From a virus (lineage: Duplodnaviria; Caudoviricetes), in the IMG/VR virus record IMGVR_UViG_3300014047_000002, positions 1 to 64,000 of that record: DNA of 64,000 nucleotides. The stretch is one strand, 5' to 3'. Made by a program: the position numbers and the translations under genes. Shown in pieces: positions 26,997 through 55,582 of this stretch. Numbering within the stretch: the first letter of the stretch is position 1; every line of letters begins with the position of its first letter. The notes below the pieces were generated by a model, which did no database searches, was not told the origin of the DNA, and was given only the letters and a program-made list of their open reading frames with translations.

Positions 26997-27062
26997 TTTT
27001 ATTAGTTTTTATTTTTACCATTTATTTTATTCCTTATTGAATAAAAAGTTTATTCTAAAATA

Positions 27063-27093
27063 AAAGTCCTATATAAATTTTATATAGGACTTT
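27063..27093 (-). terminator. Intrinsic terminator closing the Y-like RNA array
   Basis: aaagtcctatataa / ttatataggacttt inverted repeat. Confidence 0.75.
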
Positions 27094-27099
27094 ATGTAT

Positions 27100-27173
27100 C
27101 AAGAGACTAATTTTAAAAACGTAAATTATGGTGACGTTAAAAAGATATGTTTGCTGTTAATCTAGTCTCTCAT
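27100..27173 (-). ncRNA. Y-RNA-like unit 4 (ACAGCAAA motif)
   Basis: Terminal stem GAGAGACTAG/TTAGTCTCTT, with ACAGCAAA after the 5' arm. Confidence 0.6.
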
Positions 27174-27180
27174 ATAAGTT

Positions 27181-27239
27181 CAGAAGTCAAGAATTACGAT
27201 TTAAAAGATCGGTCCTAAAATTTGCTGTACGACTTCCAT
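27181..27239 (-). ncRNA. Y-RNA-like unit 3 with Lys(UUU)-like anticodon hairpin
   Basis: Stem GGAAGTCG/TGACTTCT, ACAGCAAA, internal CGAT-CTTTTAA-ATCG. Confidence 0.6.
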
Positions 27240-27256
27240 ATATGTTTCTCAAAAAA

Positions 27257-27349
27257 CAAGAGTCAAATTTTTATGGATTTGAACCATATAATTTAAAAAC
27301 CACAATTTTAAATATTAACCAAATAAAAATTTGCTGTAATGACTCTCAT
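27257..27349 (-). ncRNA. Y-RNA-like unit 2 with His(GUG)-like anticodon arm and T-arm
   Basis: Stem GAGAGTCA/TGACTCTT, ACAGCAAA, TTAAAA-TTGTGGT-TTTTAA, TATGG-TTCAAAT-CCATA. Confidence 0.6.
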
Positions 27350-27389
27350 GTATCTTTATTCATGATATAGGGAATTAATCCCTATATCA

Positions 27390-28793
27390 TTACGCTACTG
27401 CAATCTGCTTCTCGAGGTACTTCTGGTACTCGCTCAAAAGCTTATCCAAGAAGGTATTAGCATTAAAGCCTGCCTCCAAGAACTTGAGCAACATTGGATT
27501 ATATCCACTGATGAAAATGTTGCCATATGCATCAGTCTCTGGACATGTAGTTGCACGTGAGTTGAAATTCCACCATACAATCTTTGTTGAGAAGTTATTC
27601 TGACGGAACAATGCCATTGTAGCATCCTTTGACATGCTAGAGCCATAATCGAACTCCATATCAGAAAGAACTACAATATACTCTGGCGCATTCTGACGAT
27701 CAAGCTGCTGAAGCATACGCATAACAGCACCAAAATCAGTATTGCTGCAATCACCTGTATACATAGAGTTAATCTCCTTTGCATACTGTGAATACTCCTG
27801 GCGGATTGAACGTGAATAACCCCAATAGCTTGTCTTAGGCTTATCAACACCAAGCTCAATCAACTGAGGACGGCTTGAGAAGCTGATTACCTTATTAGGT
27901 GCATATGTACTGCACTTAGCAAGATAATGTCCGATAGACAAAGCCTTGCCAAAGCTGTCATTACCATCCTGCATAGAGCCAGATGTATCTACTACAGGAA
28001 TCCAGCTACCTGAGATCTTCTCCAACTTGTCGAAGAAAATATCGGCATTAGCCTGAAGGGTATCAGCTGCCTTATACAAGTCATAAGGAGTAGTAGTTGT
28101 AACGTTCAACTTCTTCTCACCAGCCTTAACTGCCTCCATATACTTTGCATAACGCTCCTTCAAAGTCTCCTTTGTAGAGAATGCATGAGCATACTTGATA
28201 GAAGCCAATGAAGGCACATGCTCAAAATTAATCTCATCATCATTATGACGAGAAAGCTTCTGCTCGACAGTAGTATCAGCCTTAATGAAATGGCCATACT
28301 GCTGCTTATTCATGCCCCAATAGTTTGCAATCTCACGAGCGACCATCAAATTCTTAGAGCTATAGCGTGGCATCCACTTCTTGGCAAGCTCATTGCCCTT
28401 CTGAATCTCTGCAAACAAGAAATCCAAAGCCTGGTGGAACATCTCACGGTCCTGGCGGAACATTGCCCAAATATCATCATAGCGACCAGCCATAATAATC
28501 TCAGCGAATGTATTACCAGCATTCTTCATCAATGCACGACCCAAATCTCGTCTACCAAGTCCAAAACGTGGATCACGAATGAACATAGCAAACAGACGTG
28601 CTTTTTCATCAGTACCGATTGAAGGAACTTCCTCCAAATGCTTCTGATAATATTCTGTCATAAACAGAACATCTAAAAGTGCGTTACTTGTTGAAGAATA
28701 TGCGATGTCGCCATTCTCAGTCAACTTTGTGTTTCCAAAAATCTGATCAAGTGTTGCCATATCTTTGTCGTTTTTACTGTTGTTAGTTTTCAT
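27390..28793 (-). CDS. DUF2828-family protein (helical N-terminus plus vWA, Ro60/TROVE-like architecture)
   Basis: TENGDIAYSST, RDPRFGLGRR, GRYDD, AKKWMPR, VPSLA, DTSGSM, TDF, LSDMEFD, IVWWN, SGYNP. Start may be the ATG at ~28760. Confidence 0.8.
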   Translation of the reverse strand: MKTNNSKNDKDMATLDQIFGNTKLTENGDIAYSSTSNALLDVLFMTEYYQKHLEEVPSIGTDEKARLFAMFIRDPRFGLGRRDLGRALMKNAGNTFAEIIMAGRYDDIWAMFRQDREMFHQALDFLFAEIQKGNELAKKWMPRYSSKNLMVAREIANYWGMNKQQYGHFIKADTTVEQKLSRHNDDEINFEHVPSLASIKYAHAFSTKETLKERYAKYMEAVKAGEKKLNVTTTTPYDLYKAADTLQANADIFFDKLEKISGSWIPVVDTSGSMQDGNDSFGKALSIGHYLAKCSTYAPNKVISFSSRPQLIELGVDKPKTSYWGYSRSIRQEYSQYAKEINSMYTGDCSNTDFGAVMRMLQQLDRQNAPEYIVVLSDMEFDYGSSMSKDATMALFRQNNFSTKIVWWNFNSRATTCPETDAYGNIFISGYNPMLLKFLEAGFNANTFLDKLLSEYQKYLEKQIAVA

Positions 28794-28801
28794 TTAAAAA
28801 T

Positions 28802-28958
28802 CAAGAGACTTTATAATTAAATTTTTAACGACGTCCTATCCGCTAGACGAACCCTACATTATTATATTTTATATGTGAGTAGGGTAGAGGATTCGAACCT
28901 CTGTTTTCGGCTTGGAATGCTATTTTAATTAGAGAATTATTTGCTGTGAGTCTCTCAT
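28802..28958 (-). ncRNA. YrlA-like RNA unit 1 with circularly permuted tRNA domain
   Basis: Stem GAGAGACT/AGTCTCTT plus ACAGCAAA; inside, in order, T-arm AGAGG-TTCGAAT-CCTCT, acceptor ACCCTAC/GTAGGGT closed by a loop, then D-arm. Confidence 0.7.
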
Positions 28959-28986
28959 TATTTGTTTATGTTTATGTTTTACTCTG

Positions 28987-28994
28987 CAAAGGTA
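28987..28994 (-). promoter_or_regulatory. Bacteroidota-type -7 promoter element
   Basis: TACCTTTG(CA) just upstream of unit 1. Confidence 0.65.
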
Positions 28995-29063
28995 TAAAAA
29001 GTTTTTGAATTGAAAAAATTTTTATTAAGTTTTTTCCTGTTTTTAATACTTTTTTGCAAAAAG

Positions 29064-29315
29064 TTAATTTAACTGTATCATTTCTTCACGTTCAATAGCA
29101 CGACGTATCCATCTCATCAATATAACAGACTTCTCATATGATGGCATGAATGTTGCTGTTTCGCCTACATCATGCTTATCTGACAAATCAATTTCATATT
29201 GATACTGTGTACCATCCTCTGTTGTTGCAATATAAACTGCAATACCACCAGACTTTATACAATCCAATTTAGATGGACTCTTTACTATTGTTTTTAAATC
29301 GTGTTTTAAATTCAT
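29064..29315 (-). CDS. Hypothetical protein
   Basis: Intact ORF, ATGA overlap. Confidence 0.6.
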   Translation of the reverse strand: MNLKHDLKTIVKSPSKLDCIKSGGIAVYIATTEDGTQYQYEIDLSDKHDVGETATFMPSYEKSVILMRWIRRAIEREEMIQLN

Positions 29316-29551
29316 TTTTCTTCTTCTATTATTTTTTCTGGTAATGTCTCACGTATAATATCCTCTATCTGACCTTTTACTGCTTCATCACCAGTCATAT
29401 GTTCATCAACAGCATTCAATCTCACAATCTTACAACCTTTACCAATACCTGCAATAGCTCGAACTAAATCAGCAAAGTAATTATCAGCTCTTGTTACATG
29501 AGCTTGATCATGCTTGAATGTTTGAATATCTAATTCTATAAATACTTTCAT
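29312..29551 (-). CDS. Hypothetical protein
   Basis: Intact ORF. Confidence 0.6.
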   Translation of the reverse strand: MKVFIELDIQTFKHDQAHVTRADNYFADLVRAIAGIGKGCKIVRLNAVDEHMTGDEAVKGQIEDIIRETLPEKIIEEEK

Positions 29552-29599
29552 ATTAAAAATATTTTATATTGATACACACAAAATAAACAAAATAAAAAT

Positions 29600-29998
29600 G
29601 ATCAGTCAACCATGTTCCTGATCGTGTCCCGATATGTTTTTTACTATAATCAAGGCTTATAGCTGCACAAGCAACGAGGGCGGGATTTCAACATTAACCT
29701 CATAAAGATGGAAACTAAGTGTATTTTTTCAGAGACCTTAGAAACCCTCTGTATTCGCACCTGCTAGCAAGTCTAGTAGATTACTTTTATTATTTAACGT
29801 CGAGTAGCCACTCCATTTCCTGTTTAAGGAACCCCCATAACTCGATTACTGTATTTTTCACAGAAAAAATATAACTGTATTTGCACCGATCTAATTTCTA
29901 AACTGCTCAATAACTGTCATATGCCCATTATTGATTAAACTAACAGAATATTGCTTTATTAAAGTCATTTCGAACTGACTTAAGTATGTGGGCTGATC
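29600..29998 (-). ncRNA. Candidate ~400-nt structured RNA
   Basis: No ORF, raised GC, ends pair (GATCAGCCCAC/GTTGACTGATC), T-loop-like hairpin AGTCAG-TTCGAAA-TGACT. Confidence 0.4.
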
Positions 29999-30044
29999 GG
30001 ACCAACCTTATAACAATATTTTTCCCTTATAGTTTAGGTAGTTG

Positions 30045-30129
30045 TTGCGGCAGCTGGATTCGAACCAGCACTATGCAATTACTGTCTTCAGGTTATGAGC
30101 CTGACATCTTACCATTAGACTACACCGCG
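30045..30129 (-). tRNA. tRNA-Met(CAT), initiator-like, long variable region
   Basis: Cloverleaf; loop CTCATAA; C1:A72 mismatch. Confidence 0.85.
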
Positions 30130-30198
30130 ATATTTAATTACATATATTATTCATAAAAATAAAATAGTCTATATAAATTAGATATAAAAATGCTAACG

Positions 30199-30272
30199 TA
30201 GCGAGAAAGGGGTTCGAACCCTTGACCTCCGGAGTATGAATCCGACGCTCTAGCCAACTGAGCTATCTCGCT
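30199..30272 (-). tRNA. tRNA-Met/Ile2(CAT)
   Basis: Cloverleaf; loop TTCATAC. Confidence 0.9.
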
Positions 30273-30486
30273 AAATTATCAGTACATAAGCAGGACGTTT
30301 TCAAGGACTTTCACCTTTAGTTTTATACTTCTCTCAGATTTCGCTGAACGCTCAACATAATGTTGGAAACCCTGGATAGACTTGTTAAACGGTAATTATT
30401 TTACATACTAAACTAAAGTATGATTAAGCTACTATTTGTGCTCACCTGCCATTCTCGGGCTAACGTTTTATATGTACTATACTTTG

Positions 30487-30564
30487 AGCGGTATACGGGA
30501 ATCGGACCCGTGCATGCCTTCGGAGTGGAAGTCCGATATGCGCCTCCAGCTACACCAATACCGC
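30487..30564 (-). tRNA. tRNA-Gly(TCC)
   Basis: Loop CTTCCAC; T73; T-loop TCCGATT. Confidence 0.85.
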
Positions 30565-30569
30565 ATTAA

Positions 30570-31469
30570 TTAATCATATAATATTTCCCAAAAATTATTT
30601 CCATACTTATTAATAGTATATTCTATCATTTCTTTTAAATCATCATAAAATAATACTTTAATATCTGGATTCTATTCTGATTTTATTCGTGATTTCTCAT
30701 CAAAATATCCTTTAATTTCAATAATTTGATTATTAACAATAAAATCTGGAAAATATTTCAATGTCTTTTTATTTAATTTATAATATCGTATTTCTTCACA
30801 TCTCTTAATCGATATATCATGTTCTAAACACCATACTAAATATGCAAGTTCCCATGAACTATCACAATGTATACCTTTATATATTCCATGATGATGTTTC
30901 TTTATAGAATTTGGATGATAGCCACCAAAATTATTCTCTTTTGCTACAGCGCTTAATTTATCATGCATATCTTTTATTTTGCAATCATCAGAACAGTATT
31001 TAGATCTTTTTCGAATTAATGTACTAAATATATTCCCGCAATATTTACAAATACGACTATGATTTTTTACTAAATTTGGATCATCTACCTAAACCCATTT
31101 TTTATCTACTAATCGCATTCCTGCAATCCAAGTAGATTTACCTTTTAAAGAATTTGCTATCTTCTCGTTTTTGCTTTCTTTATTTGTATTTAAAGCTGTT
31201 AATTGTTTAGCACATTTATCAGAACATGTTTTTTTATATTTTCCTTGTTCAAATTGTTTATGTCTTACCTATATAGTATATTCTTTACCACATATAGGGC
31301 ATTTTAATATATGTTCTTCTAAAGGATTTCTTTTCTCAAAATTTTCTTTCTTTCGTTTTTGAAATTCCTCTTGATGACTATTAGGATTCATTGAACAATG
31401 AACAATATGTGCTCCTAATGACTAACCACTTTTAAACTCTTTATTACAAAATCTACAAATATGACACAT
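30570..31469 (-). CDS. Zn-finger plus PD-(D/E)XK endonuclease, homing-endonuclease-like (recoded)
   Basis: MCHICRFC...H...C; CDSSWE, YFPDF, IEIKG; in frame through TAGs. Confidence 0.8.
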
Positions 31470-31549
31470 AATAAAAATATAGTATCTTTATTATATTTAT
31501 CATAGCAGAATAAAAAATTCGAATTTAGAAATGCTAAAAAATGTTAAAG

Positions 31550-31621
31550 AGCGGCGTACCGGATTCGGACCGGCTCCTGAATCGTGGCAGGATCCTATGC
31601 AACCATTAACACCTACACCGC
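31550..31621 (-). tRNA. tRNA-Gly(GCC)
   Basis: Loop CTGCCAC; T-loop TCCGAAT. Confidence 0.85.
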
Positions 31622-31801
31622 ATAAAATGTTCGTTTTTATAACCGTTAACGAAACCGAAAAAGCTACTTACGATTAGCAAAAAGTTTGTCAATCCAAATT
31701 AAAGACAGGGACTTACTACGTTACGTTGAGTCGCGACCTACTTACAATATTTTATTTTTTTAACGTGCAGATAATCCAGCATGTGGTATGTACACGATAA
31801 G

Positions 31802-31873
31802 AGCCACCTGGTGGAATCGAACCGCCATCTCAAGATTACAAATCATGTGTAATAACCGTTATACTAAGGTGGC
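31802..31873 (-). tRNA. tRNA-Thr(TGT)
   Basis: Loop TTTGTAA. Confidence 0.85.
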
Positions 31874-32359
31874 AAATATAAAAGGCTAATTATATATTAT
31901 CAGCTGCTTAGCCTTTTATATAAAAATATGAAGACAACCTGATAAATTCTTCATCAAATTGGTTAAAGAGTCGTTCAGCATAGGTAGATAGGCTAGCATA
32001 TATTACCACAAAGCCTACTAAGCCTCCCAATTTATTTTACCTATCATTTCCGCTTACGTCAGGTACGTGTCCCTATTACGGGCTCGGAGTTACATGATCT
32101 GAAATTGAATCAGATATTAAAGCCATATCTTTATCATGTATTATAATAATTCAATCATCACAAAAATATGTCCACCAAGTATCATCTTCAAAGCTCTTAA
32201 GCACTTTCTTCTTATCCCATTTATTTATAATACAAAGTTTCCATAAGGATTTCTTTGATAATGGACCAGAACAACCATGAGGAATAGTTCCTAATAAAGA
32301 ATTAAGTACCTCTAAATGCTTAGTATTTCTAATCTTGTGCATAATTGTATTAATTATAG

Positions 32360-32444
32360 ACTCCCTAGTTGGATTCGAACCAACGCGTCTCTTTCGAGAT
32401 TAGGTTTTGCAGACCCACCCCATCGACCACTCGAGCATAGGGAG
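32360..32444 (-). tRNA. tRNA-Cys(GCA), long variable arm
   Basis: Loop CTGCAAA; T73; variable hairpin TCTC-GAAA-GAGA. Confidence 0.85.
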
Positions 32445-32453
32445 TATGTTAAA

Positions 32454-32681
32454 TTATTCATTTTTTATTTTATCCAATAATGTATATACCATTAACCAAG
32501 AACCTAATGACATAAATATAAACCAAAGTACAGAATCTAAATTTTTCAATAAAAATACAAATACTGAATTTATAGAAACTCCTAATCTAAGGTTTAATAT
32601 AATATAATCAGCTAAAAGCAATACAAATGCAATAAATACTCCTATTATATAAAATGTTTCAAATATATTCATATTTCCCAA
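32454..32681 (-). CDS. Small membrane protein
   Basis: Hydrophobic ORF. Confidence 0.5.
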   Translation of the reverse strand: MGNMNIFETFYIIGVFIAFVLLLADYIILNLRLGVSINSVFVFLLKNLDSVLWFIFMSLGSWLMVYTLLDKIKNE

Positions 32682-32917
32682 GTATATGTTTGTACAATAT
32701 CACCGCAACATTCACAAGGATGATCATCACACTCATAATCGCCAAACATAGGAATTAATGCCTGTAGAACATAATTGAATTGATCTGGATTATTTAGCAT
32801 CCAATCATGAATTTTATCCATAATATGAAAACGTTCTTCATCAGTCATATGGATTTCTTCAACACCATCAACATTTAAACTAAATGCTGTACAACCTGTA
32901 ACTTTTTCTAACTTCAT
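32669..32917 (-). CDS. Hypothetical protein with CxCCG motif
   Basis: Intact ORF. Confidence 0.6.
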   Translation of the reverse strand: MKLEKVTGCTAFSLNVDGVEEIHMTDEERFHIMDKIHDWMLNNPDQFNYVLQALIPMFGDYECDDHPCECCGDIVQTYTWEI

Positions 32918-32942
32918 ATAATAATATTTAATTAGTGTTTAG

Positions 32943-33102
32943 TGGACCCTATGGGACTCAAACCCATGACCTCCTGAGTGTCGGTGTAATCAGTTTCGAA
33001 CTGCTTATTAATATTCCATTAATTTACACCGAAATGTTTATTTCAGTGTTTACATCTCACTGTATGCAAATCAGGTGCTCTAGTCAGCTGAGCTAAGGGC
33101 CC
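32943..33102 (-). tRNA. tRNA-Ala(TGC) interrupted by an 86-nt insert (32980-33065)
   Basis: Exons nearly identical to the intact Ala at 34140; removing the insert restores TTTGCAC. Confidence 0.85.
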
Positions 33103-33187
33103 AAAATTCTAATACTTCAGAGTTACTTTTTTGATATATAGGTACCTTCAACCAATATCCTACCTCCAGGGGTGATTAGATAACCCT

Positions 33188-34075
33188 TTATTTTTTTATA
33201 ATAATATTATAATGTTCTAATACTTTATAATTTATTTTATTAGGATATTCTCCATATTTTTTATTCCAATTTATTACATTTGTTTTTAATTCATCTATTG
33301 TTATTGAACATTTAATATATTTTGATGAATTCTCTATATGTTGTAATAATTTACAATTAGCTGGATGTGATATTAAATATGGATCTATTAAATGTTTAAA
33401 ACCTTCTTCACATGAATACTTATGATCACGTGATACACCTAATAAATTATCACCTCTATTCTTTGCTTTATACCAACCAAACTATTTTATTAAATTGAAA
33501 TCAAATTCATTAGGAAAATCATTCAATGAAAAAGTAAATTTACAAAAATACTTATATATTTGCTTTTGCTTTTTACCTTTTAATTTATATTGTAAATAAC
33601 ATTCATCTGAACAATATGATCTACGAGAATTTGTTAATAAAGATTTACCACAAAATTTACAAAAAGTATTTCTTACTTTTAATCCTTTAGATTTTACATA
33701 TTCTTTTAATGTTTGCTAAATTTTTATATTTTTATCCTCTTTATTAATTTTTGATGCAGTTAATTGTTTAGCACATTTATCAGAACATGTTTTTTTATAT
33801 TTTCCAATTTCATATTTATGTGGTGTTATATTTACTTCATATTCTTTACCACATATAATACAATTACATATATAATTTTGCTTTTTGGATTTTATATGAG
33901 AATGTATTTTCTATACAGTAGAATTTTTTATTTCTTCATATTTTGGATTCGCTTTACACCAACGTACATGATTTGCAAAAACACGTTTATTCATATATAA
34001 TGTTTCATGACAATATGGACAAACATTTTCTACTACTTCTTTACATTTATCATTACCAAAACAATTCTTACACAT
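33188..34075 (-). CDS. Zn-finger plus HNH endonuclease (recoded, missed by ORF track)
   Basis: CPYC...H...C; SRDHKYS...HPANC...HIENSSK. Confidence 0.8.
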
Positions 34076-34139
34076 ATTAAATATTAATACTTTTATTATT
34101 TATCTATGTGGAGAAAGTGAAAATCGAACTTTACTCATT

Positions 34140-34216
34140 TGGTGGACCGTATCGGACTTAAACCGATGACCTCCTGAGTGCAAATCAGGTGCTCTAGTCA
34201 ACTGAGCTAACGGCCC
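34140..34216 (-). tRNA. tRNA-Ala(TGC), CCA encoded
   Basis: G3:U70; loop TTTGCAC. Confidence 0.9.
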
Positions 34217-35414
34217 AAATTACGCATGAGACTCTTTACTCATGCTTACAATTTCAAGTCTTTCTCTTAATCATTTTCGAAAGATACTTCGGCTTGTTTT
34301 CTCACCTAGAAATACGTCACTTTAGATATTACGTCTAATACCCGAGCAAATTTTTCATTTCTCATTGTAGTGGTTCCGAGTGCTAGCCACTTCTCATGTG
34401 GCATCCCAAAACGTGCAAATCAAAAGTTGTCCAGAATTGCAAACTGTACTGCATGTATCTATAAGTTTTTCAACTTAACGGTTAATAGCAGCTATCACCC
34501 GAACAGAGTTTTCATTTTTAAAAATTAATTTATTACCTTGACCGTTTTCAAGAGCTCGATTCTATGCTTCACTTAGCTGTGTCACTTTGCCCTATTCACA
34601 ACATGCTATCATAGCAATCACTCAGCTAACGGTATGCGGTATAGCAAATTTCACCGCATTCATACGAGGCTTCTTTATTTCCATCATCGTATCTCTTCTG
34701 AGCACATAAGAAATAACCCCTTAGTGTTTTCTGCTAGGCTAATAAATTTATATATTATATATTCATTTATAAAAATGTCTATTTAATTAGTGCCTTCGTT
34801 TGATTCGAACAAACATACCAAACTCCTATTCATATGTATTGTCTTAAGCTACATATTTTCGATTGGCTTGGCCCGCTTGTACAGGGCGGCTACAGTTACC
34901 AATATACTGTGATAAACCGGCAAATTAGCACTTTAGTAGTTTCTCACTGGTTCCGTAATTATAGGCCGGTTTCCTTTCCCATATATTAAATTTAATTTCA
35001 TTTGTGGAGTACTTCGGATTCGAACTTAAAAGGTAAACTCCTATTGATGCTATCTCAAGTAAAAACCTTCGCACAGAGTACACTTTATAAAATCATGATT
35101 TCATAAAATGCTAGCTTCCAGCCTATTTAACTACTACTGTACCCCAGTTGTTTGTAGCGACGACGGGAGTCGAACCCGCAATCTCCGGCTAAAACCACCG
35201 GTATTATCTCTCTTAAATAGAATAACTTGGTTCCTCGCTTTATCCATGGCTTGCTTGACCGCTAACTTCTATTTATTGTCATTATGCCTCTAAATACCTC
35301 TCTTATACACCAAATTTACCCGTCGATAAACAACCATATAAATTTGTTATTTAGACTAACGCTTGCCAGCAACATAAAAAGAAATTTCCATCTAACTGCG
35401 TCACTGAGTTTTTG

Positions 35415-35554
35415 CGGGGGAGGAGGGATTCGAACCCACCACCATCGGATTAGCTACATAGGCAGGAATCGAACCTGCTTGCCAACTATGTAGGAGATTT
35501 AACAGTTTACTCTGTATACAGTCCGCCGCTCTACGCCATGCGAGCTACTCCCCC
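35415..35554 (-). tRNA. tRNA-Asn(GTT) interrupted by a 65-nt insert (35453-35517); could be misread as Tyr
   Basis: GCGGA-CTGT|TAA-TCCG; G73 and a short variable loop fit Asn. Confidence 0.75.
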
Positions 35555-35972
35555 AAATTTGGTTTTACAGATAACCAAAAACTGTATTGGCGGTAGAGAT
35601 TCAGCAACATTAAGTCTTTCTGACATTAACTTTAACACCCAGGTATCTACCAGTTCCCTGACCTTAGGCCTCCAGGATTTTTCCAGATGGTGGATCGAAA
35701 GGGACTCTAACCCTAATTGGCATCACGGCTTTCCCGATAAATCCGTGTGGGGATTCCAGCTAATCATGCACAACCCAACTAAAAATAAATTGAAACCCTT
35801 GCAAGTAATACTCAGATAAACCCATCCTGTTTGGACCGTTCAGGGAATTCCGAAAAAGAAGCTATAAATGAATACAACTTCAGTTAACGTCAAATACCAG
35901 ACTTCCCGCGAATAATATGCTTTCGAGACATACCTAATTAACTTCCTATTATCCTCATATAATTTCAATTTG

Positions 35973-36044
35973 CGCCCCGGGTAGGGTTCGAACCTACGAC
36001 CAATTGATTAACAGTCAACTGCTCTACCACTGAGCTACCGAGAC
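35973..36044 (-). tRNA. tRNA-Asn(GTT)
   Basis: Loop CTGTTAA; G73. Confidence 0.9.
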
Positions 36045-36335
36045 AAATTAATAAAAGATATATACCAGCGACTGCGAGTTGAATTTCACTTCCCGACCTT
36101 GGCCACTACCATTTCATCACTCCATTTTGCAACCACCTTTCTTTTACTCTCTACAGATATTACGAAAATATCAACGAATGTTTAATCAGTATTAACGAAT
36201 TTCTTCTCCTGAAGTTTGTCCTCCACATTCTAAGTTACTCAGTTTCGCTACTCTTTCATTTGTAATTTAATACAGATGATACTCTATGCACCATGAACTT
36301 ACTGTTCTTCCAATCTTTATATCTTTTATAAGAAA

Positions 36336-36411
36336 TGTAGGCACCGGATTCTACTTCTACCGATTTCATAAGATTCAGAGTCAAATGAACTATCAAATTG
36401 TTCTAACCTAC
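36336..36411 (-). pseudogene. Degenerate tRNA-Gln(CTG)
   Basis: D-arm and loop CTCTGAA present; T-loop disrupted. Confidence 0.5.
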
Positions 36412-36480
36412 GCATCTATAACTTACTTTGAGTTGCAGTTCATGACCTGACTGATTTCTTTTATAGATGTTTTATATTTG

Positions 36481-36552
36481 TAGTCCGTAGGGGAATCGGA
36501 CCCCTCTTGGCAGGTTGAAAACCTGTAGTCCTAACCGATAGACGAACGGACC
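36481..36552 (-). tRNA. tRNA-Glu(TTC)
   Basis: Loop TTTTCAA; T-loop TCCGATT. Confidence 0.9.
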
Positions 36553-36725
36553 AAGTTAAAGTTCTGTTCCATCTCGCTCAATGTATTCAAGCTAAAGCCT
36601 TTGGGAAGTCTTTCTTTATGTACACTCGATTATGACACTTCCAGCAAGTAATATATGGTATAATTTCCGGATAACCTATATTGCTAATGCCAACATTTTC
36701 CTATCATTCTAGGTAATGAACTTTG

Positions 36726-36799
36726 TAGGGTTAACGAGGATCGAACTCGTATCTTCAGCGTGAAAGGCTGACCACCTAACCTATTAGTGAGATAACCCC
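36726..36799 (-). tRNA. tRNA-Glu(TTC)
   Basis: Loop CTTTCAC. Confidence 0.85.
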
Positions 36800-37261
36800 A
36801 AATTACTAATAAGGATTCTGTTGTATTGAAGCGTTACGCCACTATCACGTAATAAACACCAAGGCTTCAATATATGTTTACTGAACTATGTAATAAAGGG
36901 TATTACACCCTCAGGTTGCAATGCATCCTGCTTACAGTGGTTTTTCACCTAACCTCCCTTATCAGTGGTCATATATCAAGATTCTCAATCTGCAAAGAAA
37001 AACACTGGATGGATTTCCACCATCAATCTGAGCTCATTAGCGGATTAGCTAATCTTCCGTGGACCAATACCCAAATATCGCCTCAAAATTTGAGACATTA
37101 TTTAATAAAAAACGTCTCATGAGGTTTCAGTGTTTATAAAATAAAGTAGATTACCGTCAGAATTCAACTGACTTATGACATTTCAAAGCTTCATCCTGTA
37201 TGTTTCAACATTTAGCTGTCCTTGTGGCTTTTCTACTCCCCACCGGAATAACCTACTTTTG

Positions 37262-37425
37262 AGCCCCAAGCCGGATTCGAACCAGCAACCTGCGCATTGG
37301 ACTATATAAAGGATTCGAACCTTTATTCACATGAATTCCCATCTGAATTTAAATATAGTCTGGTTTTTATAATGGTTACCTTCCATCTATACAAGTGCGC
37401 TGCTCTACCATTGAGCCATTGGGGC
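37262..37425 (-). tRNA. tRNA-Thr(TGT) interrupted by a 92-nt insert (37299-37390)
   Basis: GCGCA-CTTGT|AA-TGCGC flank the insert. Confidence 0.85.
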
Positions 37426-37537
37426 AAATTTAAATGCAAGTTATAATTGAGTCTTTATAACAATTTTCATGCGCTCCTGCTTTCCGGAAATTAGCATGCT
37501 GTACTCTACCTTACTCGACTTGTACGAATTGCATTTG

Positions 37538-37624
37538 TAACGGGAGCAGGATTCGAACCTGCGTGCGCCTTTTGGACGCCCTAGCTTATGAGACTAGTGA
37601 GATAGACCTCTCCTCCATCCCGCA
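37538..37624 (-). tRNA. tRNA-Met(CAT), initiator-like, long variable arm
   Basis: Loop CTCATAA; 1:72 mismatch; variable hairpin GCGTC-CAAAA-GGCGC. Confidence 0.85.
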
Positions 37625-37789
37625 ATGTTATTAAAAATAGCTATACAGAATATTCTTTTCTTGAACTAACGCGACTGATTACCGTACGATGGACTTTCAC
37701 CATATTAGATAACGTTTCCGGATTATTAACTAATATATTCTATCTTCCTGTATCATAGATAATGTACAACTTTCTATGTTTGCTATTTG

Positions 37790-37864
37790 TGGTGGCCGTG
37801 GGAGTTGAACCCGACTATCTCCAGCTTATAAGGCTGGTGCTTATACCTGTTAAGCTTCGCCACT
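37790..37864 (-). tRNA. tRNA-Ile(TAT)
   Basis: CCAGC-CTTATAA-GCTGG; some acceptor and T-stem mismatches. Confidence 0.75.
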
Positions 37865-38127
37865 ATCAGTATTTTCACAGATTAATACGAACTGTATATG
37901 AGCTTTGGTTAAACTTATAGAGGGGTAACATGCTACTTCATATAAGATTCATGAATATCTATCAACATTTCGAACTGCTCATAGAACAACCATTTAGCTA
38001 TAAACTTCTCCATGAATTTTGCATGGCATGCAAGTGGATTGATGATGGGACTCGAACCCACATGGAGCTGATCAACACTCCGCACCTAATGTATCTGCTA
38101 GCAACAGGCCTGATCCATCAATCTTTG

Positions 38128-38249
38128 TGGTAATGGCAGGATTCAAACCTACGTAAAAATGGTTAGGGATAGAAATTCCATTCTCGTCGCTTTCCCTTTA
38201 TCTATCATCGGTTGGGCTACCGCGCTCTAATCAGCTGAGCTACATTACC
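38128..38249 (-). ncRNA. tRNA-like RNA with expanded central region
   Basis: Perfect acceptor GGTAATG/CATTACC, D- and T-arms; ~65 nt replaces the anticodon/variable region. Confidence 0.55.
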
Positions 38250-38391
38250 AAATAAACAATCTACACGTATCCTTTTACTCATCACCAAATGTTGACTAGT
38301 ACATAATGATATTTCAAAAATACTCCTTTGATATATAACTTTTGCAACAATTATATACCTGCCTCTACTCCCAAACATCCTCGATTGCTTG

Positions 38392-38467
38392 TGGGGCTTG
38401 ATGGATTCGAACCATCGACCTTTACCTTGTAAGGGTACTGCTACTGAACCAGCTGAGCTAAAGCCCC
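38392..38467 (-). tRNA. tRNA-Val(TAC)
   Basis: Loop CTTACAA. Confidence 0.9.
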
Positions 38468-38772
38468 AAATGTGCGTCTTACCATACCTTACCGCACTTT
38501 ATATCGGATTTCAGAGTCTCCTTCATGTATGGCTTCCAGTGCATGTCCTATCTGATTAGGTTTGAATTATGTAAACATAATTTTTACTCAAATACCTGCA
38601 GAGTCAAAAGTCTGATACACATTTCGCGGTCACCTAAGCTCAAGCTTCGCATTTTTTATCTTCTTATTATAATTCTGTATCAGTCGAATTATATACTGAG
38701 GAGTTTGTAACTTAATTTAATAACATCTGAATTACCAAACTTTTCCGAAAATAATCAGATGGGGCCCAAAAT

Positions 38773-39384
38773 TTATTTCGCTTCAGTCACATTGCCTATT
38801 TTATTATAATATTCTTTCCAATTAGATAATGTTTTATCTAATGAATGTTGCTATAAATCTTCTTGTGTATATTTTTCTTTTGTATGAATTATTCTATGAC
38901 AATTAGGACAAACTAATATTAAATTATCCATATCATCTGAACCTCCATGTTTTTTCTATATAATATGATGTATATCACAAGTAGATTCATTCCAACCACA
39001 TAAAGAACAACCTGCATTTGCTCGATGCAATATTTTAGATATTGTTCTTTTTGATAAATCCATAATAGAACTTATATTTTCTAAATTCTATAAATGTACC
39101 ACATGCCTTTTACAATGATTACAATATATATGTCGATTTTTTCGTATTGGTGTATTAGTTATAAAAGATTCACCACACTTTTCACATATATAATTATATT
39201 CTTTTACTACTTTTGGTTTTTTATTTTCATTATGAAATTTCTTTAGAGTTTCAGAAGTTTTTTTATTCATTTCTGATGTATGTACTCTTTGTTTATTACC
39301 AAAAGCAATGGCACATGATTTAGAACAAAAACGTCCAGAACCATAAGAACCATCATGTTCTTTACCACAATTTTCACAAATCAT
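38773..39384 (-). CDS. Zn-finger plus HNH endonuclease (recoded)
   Basis: After the TAG: CSLCG...DIHHI...GGSDDMDNLILVCPNCHRIIH. Confidence 0.85.
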
Positions 39385-39447
39385 AATTCAAATATAAATC
39401 TTTTAATATTTATTTCGAACCTGTTTCGTCAAAATGTAAATTTGTAG

Positions 39448-39739
39448 TGGGAGTGGAGGGATTCGAACCCCCGAAGCCGAATGGCGCCAGATTTCAAAGC
39501 TGATAACTTGCTTTCGACTATCTCATTTCCATGCAATTATTGTTTAGGAAGCTCGTCTATAGTCTGTACACATTTTATTTAGCTCGGGATTATTATTGTT
39601 TATTTTACGTGGATAATACCTTCCCCGAATTAGCGAACTTATTCATCTATATGTTTCCATAAAGAGCTGCATTCCACATGAAGAAATGTTATCATTTATC
39701 TTACAGTCTGGTCCTAACTACCGCATTAGGAACACTCCC
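39448..39739 (-). tRNA. tRNA-Tyr(GTA) split by a group I intron
   Basis: CCAGA-CTGT|AAA-TCTGG, long variable arm, A73. Confidence 0.85.
39495..39702 (-). mobile_element. Group I intron (208 nt, no ORF)
   Basis: 5' exon ends in U, intron ends in G; core motifs AATTCGGGGAA (P), ATCCCGAGC (Q), ACAGACTA (R), GAGATAGTC (S). Confidence 0.85.
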
Positions 39740-40004
39740 AAAATAGTGGAAATTAGACTGGAATTTCCACAAACCAGCCAAACGTTTTGAACTTCAGGTA
39801 TTGTTTGGAAAAACCTATAGGAAACCATGAAAGTTTCCTAAGTTATTAGGTCAACCTTTAACCGCTATGTTAAAAGTTTTAGAAAACTGCCAGATTCACA
39901 TCCAAATTTTCAAGGTATTAATAGCATTAACCTTCTGTCTTCTCTCGCTCTTCTTCACCTATCAATAAAAATTATCAATACCCATTATATTGATAATAGT
40001 TAAG

Positions 40005-40076
40005 TAGCCCGTATGAGAATCGAACTCATCTTTCCAGGTTGAAAACCTGACGTCCTAACCGATAGACGAACGGGCC
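40005..40076 (-). tRNA. tRNA-Glu(TTC)
   Basis: Loop TTTTCAA. Confidence 0.9.
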
Positions 40077-40351
40077 ATCTGGTGCAGATTTAAAATGTGC
40101 TGACTATTGGATGCACTGTGAAAATCTCTTACTCATTTGGTACTGCACCTAAGAGATTACCTTGCCAAGTTGATTTGGGATCCAGGTGGGAATCGAACCA
40201 CGCCAGGTGAACTTCTCACATACCGCACCACCAGTATACTCAAAGCCTGCTATCCATATTGCCCCAGTCTAGTGTTTGACTGTTTTTCACCACACCCATT
40301 TACCATGGGGGACAAGGCCCGACCTACAGCAGCTTATCAGTTTGAATCTTG

Positions 40352-40454
40352 CTCCTCATACGGGAATCGAACCCGTGACCTGCCGGAACTACGGAATAAA
40401 ATTGACCTTCATTCTTTGCCCCGGTTCTTCTACCAACTTGAAGATATATGAGGA
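40352..40454 (-). ncRNA. tRNA-like RNA with extended anticodon arm
   Basis: TCCTCAT/ATGAGGA acceptor, D- and T-arms; 34 nt between CCGG stems. Confidence 0.55.
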
Positions 40455-40675
40455 TAACCAATGAACATTAAAAACTGAATCAAAACTCGTTCATCATGCA
40501 GTCATGCTCTTTCGGGGAGTCATCTGTCAAAGTTTTATAGTGCGCAATATTAAGAATGTCTATTCCATCGCGGTTAATACTTATTTCAATCTACTCTGAT
40601 GGCATCCTTAGAAAGGCTGTATAATCCAATGCAACTAAGTTTCTCATCACCATTAGTTTTACTGGACAACCTTAG

Positions 40676-40755
40676 TGAGTATGGATGGACTTGAACCACC
40701 GACGCATCTCCGCCCTTGTGGGCTTCAACTCATTAACCACCTGTGAAACATACCC
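40676..40755 (-). ncRNA. Atypical tRNA-like RNA
   Basis: Acceptor, D- and T-arms; GCCC-ACAA-GGGC instead of a 7-nt loop. Confidence 0.45.
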
Positions 40756-41117
40756 AACTTTATTGATTTTACTTATGGGAGGTGATCCCCATTCAGATGC
40801 TCTTTATCTCCGCACCATAAAGGCCGTTTGAACTCCTAGCAAATTCCACCGCTTGCTTTCCATGCAGCACTGATTTATAAAATCAATTTTGTTAATCTTA
40901 TATTTAAAAGGTTATACTTTCCGCTTAGTTGTTACTTTCTGATAAAGAATCGATTACTTTCTAATATCATACCGGCATACGTTCTCTTAATAAGGTATTA
41001 CTACCAATATTGGTGAGAATTACTGCATTGCATCGGGTTTATTAACCTCTTAAACAATTTGGTTATTTTGTGTGTATCAATATGTCAAAGAACTATTGTT
41101 TATTGTTTTGAACAGTG

Positions 41118-41125
41118 CAAAGATA
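41118..41125 (-). promoter_or_regulatory. Bacteroidota-type -7 promoter driving the tRNA array
   Basis: TATCTTTG(CA). Confidence 0.65.
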
Positions 41126-41195
41126 CGAACTATTTTTGAATCAAAAAAATTTTTTGAAGAAAAAGTTCAATTCTTTAACGTTGTTTAACAATTAG

Positions 41196-41295
41196 TGTAC
41201 ACAGGAGGGCTCGAACCTCCAACCGCATTTGCCTAGAATTTTCGCGCGGTACCAGCGTTTGAAGCTAGCGCGTTTACCACTTTCGCCACATGTAC
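41196..41295 (-). tRNA. tRNA-Leu(CAA), very long variable arm
   Basis: Loop TTCAAAC; ~31-nt variable region. Confidence 0.8.
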
Positions 41296-41315
41296 ATCTT
41301 TATATATTATATTAA

Positions 41316-41519
41316 TTATTTTCCTTTTTTAATAAACGTTGCTATCTCTTTAGCTCGCTTTAATATTTTTTCAAAATCTTGGTAATCCTTACCTTGCACC
41401 ATTGGTTTATAATATTGCAATGCTGCACTAATTCCCAAAAAATTAATTCTTTCTTCTTTTGTAAAACCTTCAAATAAGGTACTACTTACATTTGTATCGT
41501 CTCCGTTTGTTGTAATCAT
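41316..41519 (-). CDS. Hypothetical protein
   Basis: Intact ORF. Confidence 0.5.
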   Translation of the reverse strand: MITTNGDDTNVSSTLFEGFTKEERINFLGISAALQYYKPMVQGKDYQDFEKILKRAKEIATFIKKGK

Positions 41520-41541
41520 ATTCTAAATTATTTAAATCATG

Positions 41542-41614
41542 CAGGGGGAGTTGGATTCGAACCAACAACTTCATGATTAAGCACTCGTGCGCTCTACCGT
41601 TGAGCTATCCCCCC
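41542..41614 (-). tRNA. tRNA with an 8-nt anticodon loop (Lys CTT-like)
   Basis: CACGA-GTGCTTAA-TCATG; other arms canonical. Confidence 0.6.
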
Positions 41615-41619
41615 AATGG

Positions 41620-41925
41620 TTATATTGAAAATCCTCGCCATAACCATCGAATGTGCTTCGTGTGTTCAGGACCTTTAACTTAAAGCTTTGACAAAACCCC
41701 ATTGTGTTATCCAATTCACCAACGCGCCATAATTATAGTTTGTTAGTAGAGGCGCGTACGAGATTCGAACTCGTTATAATGGGAATTTCATGATGTACAC
41801 GAACGCGCTATCCTGACACTCCGCTTTGACTGTGACTCTAAAGCTCTTGACACAATGCTTATGCTAAAATCTAGGATTCTGATAATGCTAATTGTAAATC
41901 TAAAGCTTTCGTCAATATGTCAATT
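41620..41925 (-). ncRNA. ~300-nt RNA with permuted tRNA domain and AGCTTTA repeats
   Basis: Order CCCAT, T-arm, ACGCGCC/GGCGCGT, D-arm, ATGGG at 41698-41783; boundaries approximate. Confidence 0.6.
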
Positions 41926-41940
41926 TATATTATTCTATTT

Positions 41941-42141
41941 TTAATATCTACTCTTAAAGAACCAGATAAGTAATGCTATGATTATTATCCATAAAAGCAC
42001 TCCACCATAAAGAGGAAGTAGTACCAACCACCATGACCAATCAATATAATGTGTAAGCTTTAATACTATGAATACTATACCAAGCAAACCAAAAAATCCG
42101 ATTCCACTGCTTGAGCTGCTTGAACTACTTGAACCTGGCAT
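41941..42141 (-). CDS. Small membrane protein (LKL...IDWSWW..L.P type)
   Basis: Ser-rich N-terminus, two TM helices. Confidence 0.7.
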   Translation of the reverse strand: MPGSSSSSSSSSGIGFFGLLGIVFIVLKLTHYIDWSWWLVLLPLYGGVLLWIIIIALLIWFFKSRY

Positions 42142-42158
42142 TGTTTAAATCATTAATT

Positions 42159-42962
42159 TTACTTTCCGAAATGAATGAAATCAACAAGTGCATCAACATT
42201 CAAATTCTCAGCCATAACTTCTTGGTCATTTACCTCCTTCAAAGCGGCGATAACGGCCTTAAGAACACGGCTTCTACGATCCAAAAGATCTGCCTTCTGA
42301 CGCTGTGACCATTCACCAGTAAACTTCTGGAATGTGTAATCACCAGTCTCTACTGTTCTCTTCTTCTGTACAACAGCTGCACGATAGTTCTCAGGAATAT
42401 TTGCAGGATTAATATTTGGATCCTTCAAAATAACATCCTCTGTTTCTGTAGTACGTGTAACACCCTTTACCATCTCTGTCTCAAGTACCTCACGATCCTT
42501 ATACTCCACATTCTTAGAAGGTGTCCAAACCTCAGAATCAGAATAAACAGGAATACGCTCATACATTGTAACAAGCTCCTTAGAAGTAAGAATGCTCTTC
42601 AAACGCATCAAATCAAGTGCAGTCAACTCACCAAATGAAACACCATCAACAACGAGTTCAACTTTCTTTGCACCAGCAGAATTTGTAGCCTCTACCTGGA
42701 AAACTTCCTTCAAGTAATTCTTTGCTACCTTATCACCAAACCAATCAAGCTGTTCCTTAACAGTAGTCTGTACATTTGTAGTACCCTGCTTGGTTGGGTC
42801 CTCAGAATAACCCTCACGAGGTGTAAATGTTTTCTTCTCACCACGGAAAGCACCCTGACTCTTCTTAAAATACTCAGCATACTCATTTACTTCTTTATTA
42901 TAAACTGATGCTGAATGATCAACCTTGGCAAGCAAGGTATTCATCTTTACTGCGTTACTCAT
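42159..42962 (-). CDS. Conserved uncharacterised protein (DUF7873-like, from memory)
   Basis: KMNTLLA, ELVVDG, IPV, GDYTFQKFTG, LKAVIAALKEVN; codon usage of a highly expressed gene. Confidence 0.65.
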   Translation of the reverse strand: MSNAVKMNTLLAKVDHSASVYNKEVNEYAEYFKKSQGAFRGEKKTFTPREGYSEDPTKQGTTNVQTTVKEQLDWFGDKVAKNYLKEVFQVEATNSAGAKKVELVVDGVSFGELTALDLMRLKSILTSKELVTMYERIPVYSDSEVWTPSKNVEYKDREVLETEMVKGVTRTTETEDVILKDPNINPANIPENYRAAVVQKKRTVETGDYTFQKFTGEWSQRQKADLLDRRSRVLKAVIAALKEVNDQEVMAENLNVDALVDFIHFGK

Positions 42963-43143
42963 AAATCTAAATTATTTTATTTGTTAATGTTTAAATGTTA
43001 TATTGTATTTCAAATTAAATGTTTACTTAATTTTTAAATTTTTTATATCTTTATTTCTAAGTAAATATCTCATTTATTTGAGTTACGAATTAATATATTC
43101 TATCTAATTATTAAAGTCTGTTTTTTAATTGCTAAAACATATT

Positions 43144-55026: not shown

Positions 55027-55037
55027 ATTTTAAATCT

Positions 55038-55487: not shown

Positions 55488-55582
55488 TTAATATTTTATA
55501 ATCAGTATTTTTAGGATAACTGTCTATTATTCCAAATAAATTAATAAAATTATAATACTCTATTAATTTTTTAATATCAATA

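Follow-up and report, generated by a model that had tools for sequence, protein, structure and literature searches.

Lak megaphage tRNA introns with a tRNA-like 3′ module: three new members in a phage tRNA array, their shared architecture and a common boundary rule

The introns of archaeal and eukaryal tRNA genes are short, do not splice themselves, lie in or near the anticodon loop and have cut sites set by RNA structure, in their case two 3-nt bulges and a 4-bp helix (the bulge-helix-bulge, or BHB, motif), with EndA or Sen and RtcB or Trl1 as the enzymes. Group I introns, such as those of cyanobacterial tRNA-Leu and tRNA-fMet, also use the anticodon loop and are often mobile and accompanied by homing endonucleases; they measure 200 nt or more and end in G. 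We know of no textbook protein-spliced tRNA introns in bacteria, where the known mechanisms are self-splicing group I and, rarely, group II introns, nor, to our knowledge, do bacterial hosts have tRNA-splicing machinery of the BHB type. Here we analyze three tRNA genes, for Ala, Asn and Thr, that are interrupted at the anticodon by inserts of 86, 65 and 92 nt in a 64,000-nt stretch of phage DNA, positions 1 to 64,000 of IMG/VR record IMGVR_UViG_3300014047_000002 (the whole stretch is called the window below). The three inserts, each ending in a nested tRNA-like element, are new members of a published, unexplained kind of intron from Lak megaphages; the Ala insert is apparently unlisted.

That kind was described by Devoto et al. 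(Nat Microbiol, 2019; PMC6784885), who reported "enigmatic", highly conserved introns in Lak megaphage tRNAs, namely in genes for Tyr, Phe, Thr and Gly (main text with Fig. 4 and Table S6). They noted that the Thr intron may encode a tRNA, that Rfam gave no hit, that introns were polymorphic in presence or absence, and that the excision point lay one base off the tRNAscan prediction; a mechanism, a common architecture and a splice rule were not given. A study of 262 jumbo-phage genomes (2026; PMC13037316) repeated that such introns "could encode another tRNA". An earlier note on the window had proposed a new intron class, a claim that these two papers overtake, and had also suspected that a tRNA inside a Lak phage intron might already have been noticed, which the Thr intron of PMC6784885 bears out. 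Our literature check for a solved mechanism found nothing beyond these two papers, apart from one 2026 review that mentions the introns in passing.

The split genes belong to a dense tRNA array on the minus strand (about 27–42 kb of the window), in which a tRNA scan of the window found 15–20 tRNA genes. The phage genome has 28% G+C, and in-frame TAG codons within its open reading frames (ORFs) were read with genetic code 15; CheckV rates the source record, a 99-kb fragment, as about 18% of the genome. Although TAG is read as sense, the tRNA scan called no CUA suppressor there. Introns were detected with aragorn -i and a structural parse, and the minus-strand positions and boundaries that the earlier note had assigned to the three inserts (Ala 33065–32980, Asn 35517–35453, Thr 37390–37299) hold. 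The split genes, their parts (P1 is a 5′ hairpin and P2 a helix) and the intronless isoacceptors, which as that note had said are present in the window for all three, are as follows.

32942–33102, minus strand: split tRNA-Ala(UGC) with G3:U70; exon 1 at 33102–33066, exon 2 at 32979–32942 (aragorn -i; Rfam tRNA; spliced product, a tRNA-Ala whose best match is the window's intronless tRNA-Ala)
32980–33065, minus strand: Ala intron, 86 nt (fold; structural parse, P2 8/8 and T stem 4/5)
33065–33025, minus strand: 5′ part of the Ala intron, with AUA at 33065–33063, hairpin P1 at 33062–33044, linker at 33043–33033 and P2 5′ strand at 33032–33025
33024–32980, minus strand: 3′ part of the Ala intron, with GG segment at 33024–33006, T arm at 33005–32989, P2 3′ strand at 32988–32981 and final C at 32980
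34140–34216, minus strand: intronless tRNA-Ala(UGC), paralogue of the split Ala gene (tRNA scan; aragorn)
35414–35554, minus strand: split tRNA-Asn(GUU), insert between anticodon bases 35 and 36 (aragorn -i; Rfam; intronless homologue on contig L080)
35453–35517, minus strand: Asn intron, 65 nt, the minimal form (fold; parse)
35517–35486, minus strand: 5′ part of the Asn intron, with AU at 35517–35516, P1 at 35515–35502 (loop AGUAAA), linker at 35501–35494 and P2 5′ strand at 35493–35486
35485–35453, minus strand: 3′ part of the Asn intron, with 7-nt GG segment at 35485–35479, T arm at 35478–35462, P2 3′ strand at 35461–35454 and final C at 35453
35972–36044, minus strand: intronless tRNA-Asn(GUU) (tRNA scan; Rfam)
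37261–37425, minus strand: split tRNA-Thr(UGU) (aragorn -i; Rfam; spliced product)
37299–37390, minus strand: Thr intron, 92 nt (fold; parse)
37390–37353, minus strand: 5′ part of the Thr intron, with AUA at 37390–37388, P1 at 37387–37371, linker at 37370–37361 and P2 5′ strand at 37360–37353
37352–37299, minus strand: 3′ part of the Thr intron, with GG-bearing hairpin segment at 37352–37325, T arm at 37324–37308, P2 3′ strand at 37307–37300 and final C at 37299
31801–31873, minus strand: intronless tRNA-Thr(UGU), the best body match of the split Thr gene in the related record G008 (tRNA scan; body comparison)

The Rfam tRNA model covers the split Ala and Asn genes (32943–33102 at 49.2 bits and 35415–35554 at 36 bits) and gives a partial match on Thr (37308–37418, 22.7 bits), under the 29-bit gathering score. 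In minimum-energy folds each insert forms a 5′ hairpin and a long stem around a T arm, with z-scores of −3.5, −2.2 and −2.1 against shuffled sequences.

The intron boundaries were fixed by comparison with uninterrupted genes. Taking the 86 nt out of the split Ala gene leaves the junction sequence of its intronless paralogue, and an intronless tRNA-Asn on phage contig L080, found with a 19-nt exon probe, is near-identical to the split Asn exons, joins exactly at CUGU/UAA and differs in the acceptor stem by compensated changes. The L080 junction therefore places the Asn insert unambiguously within the anticodon itself: it separates bases 35 and 36 and cannot be slid to another position. When the rule "NUA ... 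C" for the two ends of the intron was applied to 11 members of the family, aragorn called a canonical tRNA in 11 of 11, and the anticodon so obtained matched the isotype of the best intronless body match in 10 of them, the comparison set being roughly 240 or more intronless tRNAs from related phage records. The joined halves always make a 7-nt loop, an agreement that extends to the inserts at 33/34 (Arg UCU) and 35/36 (Asn), and the same rule recovers Tyr, Asn and Phe tRNAs from metagenome variants. Several automatic calls are corrected in this way (Ser(GCU) to Asn, Gly(UCC) to Thr, Lys(CUU) to Arg(UCU)); the Gly call made by aragorn for split Thr arises from reading the nested T arm. The proposal that removal of ATA through NC restores canonical loops thus agrees with the paralogue Ala junction, the L080 Asn junction and the spliced products. 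Alternative boundaries with both cuts shifted by 1–2 nt, which put Ser(GCU), Ala(UGC), Tyr(GUA) or Lys(CUU) anticodons on Asn, Thr, Asn and Arg bodies, were rejected.

The single architecture first seen in the three inserts recurs in their relatives. From 5′ to 3′ it consists of NUA, a G-C-closed hairpin (P1), an A-rich linker of 8–12 nt, an 8-bp helix (P2), a middle segment with GG, a T arm, one unpaired C and exon 2, within a total intron length of 65–141 nt. The pairing counts come from the structural parse of 11 members, as MAFFT alignments left the P2 5′ strands out of register. All 44 cells of P1 (4–5 bp) are paired, and all 88 cells of P2, with three to five pair types per position and 10 different sequences in the 11 members; slid controls for P2 gave 22–40 paired cells of 88. 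The T stem of 5 bp is paired in 52 of 55 cells and carries a 7-nt loop, of the UUCGA type in 8 of 11 members (variants UCCGACU, AGCGAAA and AGCGAUA). The middle segment, 7–78 nt long, holds no constant arm; GG occurs in it in 10 of 11 members against 3.4 expected from genome composition. The final unpaired C is present in 11 of 11 members and in 18 distinct metagenome variants.

Some details of the first description needed to be widened. ATA at the start holds for the window inserts, whereas the family-wide form is NUA, with A at the third base in 11 of 11 members, U at the second in 10 of 11, and UUA, CUA and ACA as variants. GTAA in the hairpin loop is common and not universal (AGUAAA is the commonest loop; others are AGAGAA, AAGGAA and AAACAA); what is constant is the closing G-C pair and a loop that begins and ends with A. 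The end in C stands, while the preceding N, given at first as the base after a 7-bp acceptor stem, always pairs and makes the stem 8 bp followed by a single C. The nested element thus has the acceptor stem, the T arm with its T loop and the D-loop-like GG of a true tRNA, and lacks an anticodon arm (7-nt loop); its paired "discriminator", which gives an acceptor of 8 bp, is unlike that of a true tRNA. Bacterial tRNA-Sec likewise stacks 13 bp of acceptor and T stem (8+5) and follows them with a single unpaired base, and the module resembles it in this respect.

These dimensions separate what is constant at the two ends from what is not. The 3′ cut lies at a fixed distance from the T loop, 13 stacked bp plus one base, whereas the distance of the cut from the anticodon stem varies between 2 and 5 nt, with insertion at 33/34 in Arg(UCU), 35/36 in Asn and 36/37 in most others. 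The leader (NUA, hairpin and linker) is 24–33 nt long and can be identical behind different exon ends, and exon-intron pairing is absent. Since the position of insertion varies and the exons do not pair with the intron, recognition must lie in the intron itself. Across the four records scanned, hairpins of the P1 type occur almost nowhere outside these introns, and one such hairpin revealed a Phe member in the B-Lak-like record G010.

With this architecture in hand, the published Lak introns can be compared with ours. They share an AT-rich, TAG-recoded phage, a large tRNA array and the anticodon-loop site; read by eye, the A1 Phe, A1 Thr, A1 "Tyr" and A2 Gly introns of PMC6784885 show NUA, hairpin, linker, 13-bp stack and C; and the A1 "Tyr" leader is matched letter for letter in four IMG/VR records. 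As judged by the boundary rule, by G73 and by body similarity, the published "Tyr(GTA)" intron gene is an Asn(GUU) gene. An Ala intron is absent from the list in PMC6784885. We believe that the common rule, the exon-independent recognition, the reassignment of "Tyr" to Asn and the link to C74 discussed below are not in print.

Relatives were gathered with exon and leader probes against IMG/VR, through relatives of RtcB, and by whole-record tRNA scans of arrays. The same build was found in nine further inserts of three related phage records: in Asn, Thr, Lys(UUU) and Arg(UCU) genes of G001, in Phe, Arg(CCU) and Thr genes of G008, and in G010 in Asn, with a 141-nt insert, and Phe (the records are 60%, 82% and 45% complete, respectively, and the window record 18%). 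A metagenome scan with a 14-nt leader word and UUCGA added 26 family matches, which reduce to 18 distinct ones and lie in Asn, Phe and true class II Tyr genes, and close variants of the window's Asn intron occur at metagenome loci L085, L147 and L152. Among INPHARED phage records, which gave no Lak genome, only generic tRNA-Asn matches were found. Metatranscriptomes from ruminants, pigs and wastewater contain about 0.25–0.36 of the sequence words sampled, shares that we do not count as evidence. The class is absent from six other large records with RtcB relatives (G002–G007), where other short intron types are present. In other large phages we noted further short types of tRNA insert, of about 115 nt, 54–70 nt and 51 nt, with conserved sequences unrelated to this class (L006 and L049, in Thr genes; L062:18566–18702; L068:12653–12796 and 13417–13561; L072:7402–7524 and 12044–12169).

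Comparison of orthologues indicates that the interrupted genes are maintained. In orthologous split Asn and Thr genes, such as the split Thr gene of G001 with its diverged intron (L059:7665–7817), both exons and introns have diverged while the folds are kept and the acceptor stems are different but compensated. Moreover, the only genes found in G001 and G008 for Thr(UGU), Lys(UUU), Arg(UCU), Arg(CCU) and Phe(GAA) are split ones. The suggestion that split genes are reserve copies is therefore not general, and, as far as sequence can tell, the exons are under selection, because diverged split Asn and Thr genes keep compensated stems and because of the five sole-copy anticodons. Together with the 7-nt loops that carry the isotype-correct anticodon, the fold-keeping orthologues and the sole-copy split genes lead us to infer that the inserts are probably removed at the RNA level.

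The opposing reading is that these are purely selfish DNA, cassettes spread by endonucleases and never removed from RNA, in split genes that are dead or dying and are tolerated through isoacceptors or host tRNAs. The array does contain genes of the kind this would need:

33188–34075, minus strand: homing-endonuclease-like ORF (code 15) between the intronless and the split tRNA-Ala (phrog_23051, 3.9e-24; HNH family phrog_1271, 1.5e-5; no Pfam match)

An HNH-type ORF located exactly between an intact and a split tRNA-Ala, the presence/absence polymorphism among near-identical tRNAs (L080; PMC6784885), the same leader in Asn, Phe and Tyr genes and the intact isoacceptors of all three window split genes would fit such a history. 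Yet it leaves unaccounted for the perfect exon cloverleaves with stems compensated across diverged orthologues, loop halves that always sum to 7 nt with an isotype-correct anticodon, and sole-copy split genes in G001 and G008 for readers of A/U-ending codons, those most needed by an AT-rich phage; an element acting at the DNA level also needs no covarying tRNA-like RNA fold. We consider it quite unlikely as a full account. At the DNA level, the HNH ORFs in the array, the polymorphism and the shared leader in different tRNAs do argue that the intron could be a portable cassette that settles at varying loop positions and in varying tRNAs beside free-standing homing-endonuclease genes. Free-standing homing endonucleases help to spread some phage group I introns.

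Three zinc-finger/HNH-type ORFs of the window (30570–31469, 33188–34075 and 38773–39384, minus strand) match phrog_1271, each between tRNAs of the same or a related isotype. The last of them, an HNH endonuclease gene (PF01844, 3.7e-11), directly follows a class II tRNA-Tyr(GUA) gene (39447–39739, minus strand) with a 208-nt insert after base 37; this insert lacks the hairpin and mini-tRNA build, has no Rfam match and represents a different, larger intron type.

The inserts also do not fit the known intron classes. Over 32900–37450, Rfam searches at E<=10 returned tRNA plus unrelated matches at chance level only; the group I core P3–P9 (RF00028) had no match there at that threshold, nor at E<=1 over 26000–43000, and in the inserts neither a group II intron in Rfam nor covariance models of hammerhead, twister, pistol, hatchet and hepatitis delta virus (HDV)-like ribozymes matched at E<=10. 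The last base is C where group I introns have the omega G, and no internal guide pairs with the 5′ exon; the 65-nt minimal intron is too small for group I, so that the anticodon-loop site and mobility shared with group I introns contrast with a length of 65–141 nt and an end in C instead of G. Geometry precludes a BHB motif: the bases preceding the 3′ cut are locked in P2, whose partner strand lies 24–33 nt downstream of the 5′ cut; the cut distances are variable as well, unlike those of archaeal and eukaryal introns. The earlier statement that group I and BHB features are lacking is thus backed by the Rfam search, the terminal C and the geometry of P2. EndA (PF01974) had no match at E<=0.1 in the window record (G000), G001, G008 or G010, the search being confined to these phage records, which are 18–82% complete.

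tRNA-like mimics in longer RNAs direct RNase P and RNase Z to exact positions, and MALAT1/mascRNA, plant mitochondrial t-elements and mitochondrial tRNA punctuation all use a tRNA mimic in a longer RNA as a processing signal. The introns resemble these systems and depart from them in having the mimic inside another tRNA, a 3′ cut that must precede ligation, and an extra 5′ leader hairpin. Recognition by RNase P, RNase Z and the CCA-adding enzyme relies on the elbow, the 13-bp stack and C74. In ordinary tRNA genes of nine related phage records (G000–G006, G008 and G010), a C follows the discriminator in 239 of 246, against 15% C in the phage genome; only nine of these genes encode CCA. Likewise, C74 was found in 59 of 59 tRNA genes at Bacteroidota loci from GTDB genomes (L172–L251), six of which encode CCA. 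On this sequence evidence, the intron's final C is the C74 signature of real tRNA genes of the phage and of the host phylum, and the 3′ splice site accordingly lies where the tRNA-gene signature ends. In these terms the 7-bp acceptor, N and C of the earlier note form an ordinary tRNA-gene end, apart from the constant pairing of N. Near-universal C74 without CCA suggests that a templated C74 is used in 3′ maturation or RNase P binding in Bacteroidota.

Architecture, covariation, boundaries, the identity of the last base with C74 and the absence of features of known ribozymes are shown by the sequences, whereas splicing itself and the enzymes involved are inferred. The reading that we favor, on which our own judgement is evenly balanced, is that these are introns of a Lak-megaphage-specific class that cannot excise themselves and that proteins remove at the RNA level, with both cuts set by the structure of the intron and not by the tRNA body. 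The 3′ module would imitate the upper half of a pre-tRNA, in that its acceptor-like stem (8 bp) stacks on the T stem (5 bp), the GG segment holds the T-loop elbow and the last base is C74, and a tRNA 3′-end endonuclease of the RNase Z type would cut right after the final C, as at a tRNA's own end. Given the tRNA-like features and the final C, such a cut is the simplest account of the 3′ site, and the earlier proposal that the mini-tRNA sets it fits the constant 13 bp from the T loop plus C and the C74 signature. The 5′ cut would fall at N/AUA, 2–3 nt upstream of the G-C-closed hairpin, where a second, single-strand endonuclease (RNase E/G/Y-like or phage-encoded) may read N/AUA together with the hairpin; with U at +2 and a single strand beside a hairpin, the site in our view resembles those of the RNase E type. 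The exon halves would be kept together by the tRNA body and then sealed by an RNA ligase, either an Rnl2-type enzyme for 3′-OH/5′-phosphate ends or RtcB for cyclic-phosphate/5′-OH ends.

The same tRNA-like features admit a second use, in which the mini-tRNA is itself the payload and the surrounding tRNA gene its carrier. A small tRNA-like RNA would be freed by RNase P and RNase Z to serve as a decoy for host anticodon nucleases or tRNA-sensing defense systems or as a partner of the phage's Ro60-like protein, and rejoining of the exons would be secondary or partial. Retention of the elbow, the 13-bp stack and C74 around a middle segment of anything from 7 to 78 nt is in line with this, as are the Ro60-like DUF2828/vWA protein encoded at the array edge and the CCA-adding enzyme of Lak A1. 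Bacterial Y RNAs (YrlA) also carry an anticodon-less tRNA-like module, yet no Y RNA matched in the Rfam search. Because a payload leaves unexplained the conservation of the 5′ hairpin and AUA and the constant restoration of a 7-nt loop with the correct anticodon, we regard it as quite unlikely to be the primary role, and it is in any case compatible with splicing and not opposed to it.

Which ligase might seal the exons in our favored scheme depends on the ends produced, and the window offers two relevant genes:

53261–54577, minus strand: RtcB RNA ligase, a candidate sealing enzyme (PF01139, 2.6e-58; phrog_1075 "tRNA splicing ligase", 2.7e-98)
55583–56161, minus strand: HAD "Swiss Army Knife" RNA-repair-type protein, near RtcB on the same strand (PF18143, 3.4e-22)

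The run from 53261 to 56161 on the minus strand comprises the HAD protein, two conserved proteins of 149–150 aa with 89 metagenome relatives each, and RtcB. The two ORFs (54574–55026 and 55038–55487) match no Pfam family and have only a marginal PHROG match of function unknown, and the protein atlas gave no lead; their AlphaFold models, though confident (predicted local distance difference test 88.8 and 92.5), have no Foldseek match in the PDB at E<=0.001, and the best VIA Z-scores, 4.4 and 3.5, are uninformative. Among the intron-bearing records RtcB was found in the window record only, with no match in G001, G008 or G010 at the levels of completeness given above; the control genome of B. thetaiotaomicron encodes RtcB, and a host RtcB is possible. 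The 3′-OH and 5′-phosphate ends left by a tRNA 3′-processing metallonuclease are substrates for an Rnl2-type ligase and not for RtcB. The claim that the phage RtcB rejoins the exons is therefore weak, and RtcB is doubtful as the ligase. The part of the Lak A1 gene table covered here annotates a T4 Rnl2-type ligase and a CCA-adding enzyme and leaves RtcB unmentioned. The tRNA array of G001 (L059:10638–12590, plus strand) encodes a 223-aa PF09414 RNA ligase, followed directly by TnpB (IS605 OrfB/Cas12f-like). The proximity of RNA ligase genes to tRNA arrays, with RtcB in the window, PF09414 in G001 and Rnl2 in Lak A1, speaks for sealing by an enzyme of this kind.

RtcB would gain its place by another route, in which a metal-independent endonuclease or a small, undescribed self-cleaving fold of the intron cuts both sites to leave 2′,3′-cyclic phosphate and 5′-OH ends and the phage RtcB joins the exons, perhaps also circularizing the intron. 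RtcB, the RNA-repair HAD protein and the two conserved ORFs do lie about 16–20 kb from the three split genes, RtcB relatives occur in seven other large phage records with big tRNA arrays and other intron types, and the hairpin loop, linker and elbow could form a compact tertiary fold. Nevertheless, no known ribozyme matched at E<=10 and the minimal 65-nt member consists of two helices and a T arm; the class-bearing G001, G008 and G010 gave no RtcB; the records with RtcB relatives, G002–G007, do not have this intron class; and the same portion of the Lak A1 table lists Rnl2 with RtcB unmentioned. This route seems to us unlikely.

Several observations weigh against the favored scheme of an RNase Z-type cut, a second endonuclease and a ligase. 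Canonical RNase Z cuts after N73 and not C74, and C74 could instead serve RNase P binding. An RNase P cut at the 5′ end of P2 would leave the hairpin-linker leader on exon 1; as the RNase P site differs from the 5′ splice site, a separate 5′ nuclease has to be postulated. No match to RtcB or Rnl was found in G008, 82% complete, where a host ligase would consequently be needed (the T4 Rnl1 profile, PF09511, matched in none of the four records, but it was silent in the control genomes too and thus carries no weight), and the two ORFs beside RtcB are, as modeled, without a recognizable fold. In the window genome, finally, a split gene that ceased to function would be tolerated, since an intact isoacceptor of each is present.

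Other features of the array were noted in passing. At its edge (25812–28793, minus strand) lie genes for EF-Tu (PF00009/PF03143/PF03144) and the Ro60-like DUF2828/DUF7788 protein. Long ORF-free spacers between tRNAs (34220–35400, 36050–36480, 36800–37260 and 40170–40390, minus strand) repeatedly end in tails resembling a T arm plus acceptor and may correspond to what are described in Lak phages as "highly expressed intergenic regions"; weak Rfam matches to the 3′ end of transfer-messenger RNA occur at 35164–35178 and 40360–40377. A tRNA at 41541–41614 (minus strand) has an 8-nt anticodon loop, with the aragorn anticodon "gctt" and 53.6 bits in Rfam, and two unusual genes were found on the same strand, a 122-nt tRNA-like gene with an extra region of about 50 nt (38128–38249) and a 100-nt Leu(CAA)-like gene (41195–41295).

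For the 2019 enigma, the rule of a 5′ cut at N/AUA, a 3′ cut 13 bp from the T loop plus C, and exon-independent recognition yields precise predictions, and it corrects the anticodon calls of tRNA finders (Asn in place of Tyr or Ser, Thr in place of Gly, Arg in place of Lys). At 65 nt, the smallest of these self-contained, excisable RNA cassettes might find use as a tool. Splicing of the introns would mean that Bacteroidota or their phages possess an enzymatic route not yet described. Tentatively, and with the greater part of our expectation still on the other side, it may be a third tRNA-splicing route in bacteria and giant phages, in which a tRNA-shaped intron recruits RNase Z and a second nuclease and a ligase reseals the loop; if that were true, tRNA 3′ ends in this phylum and its phages would arise by cleavage after C74, not N73.

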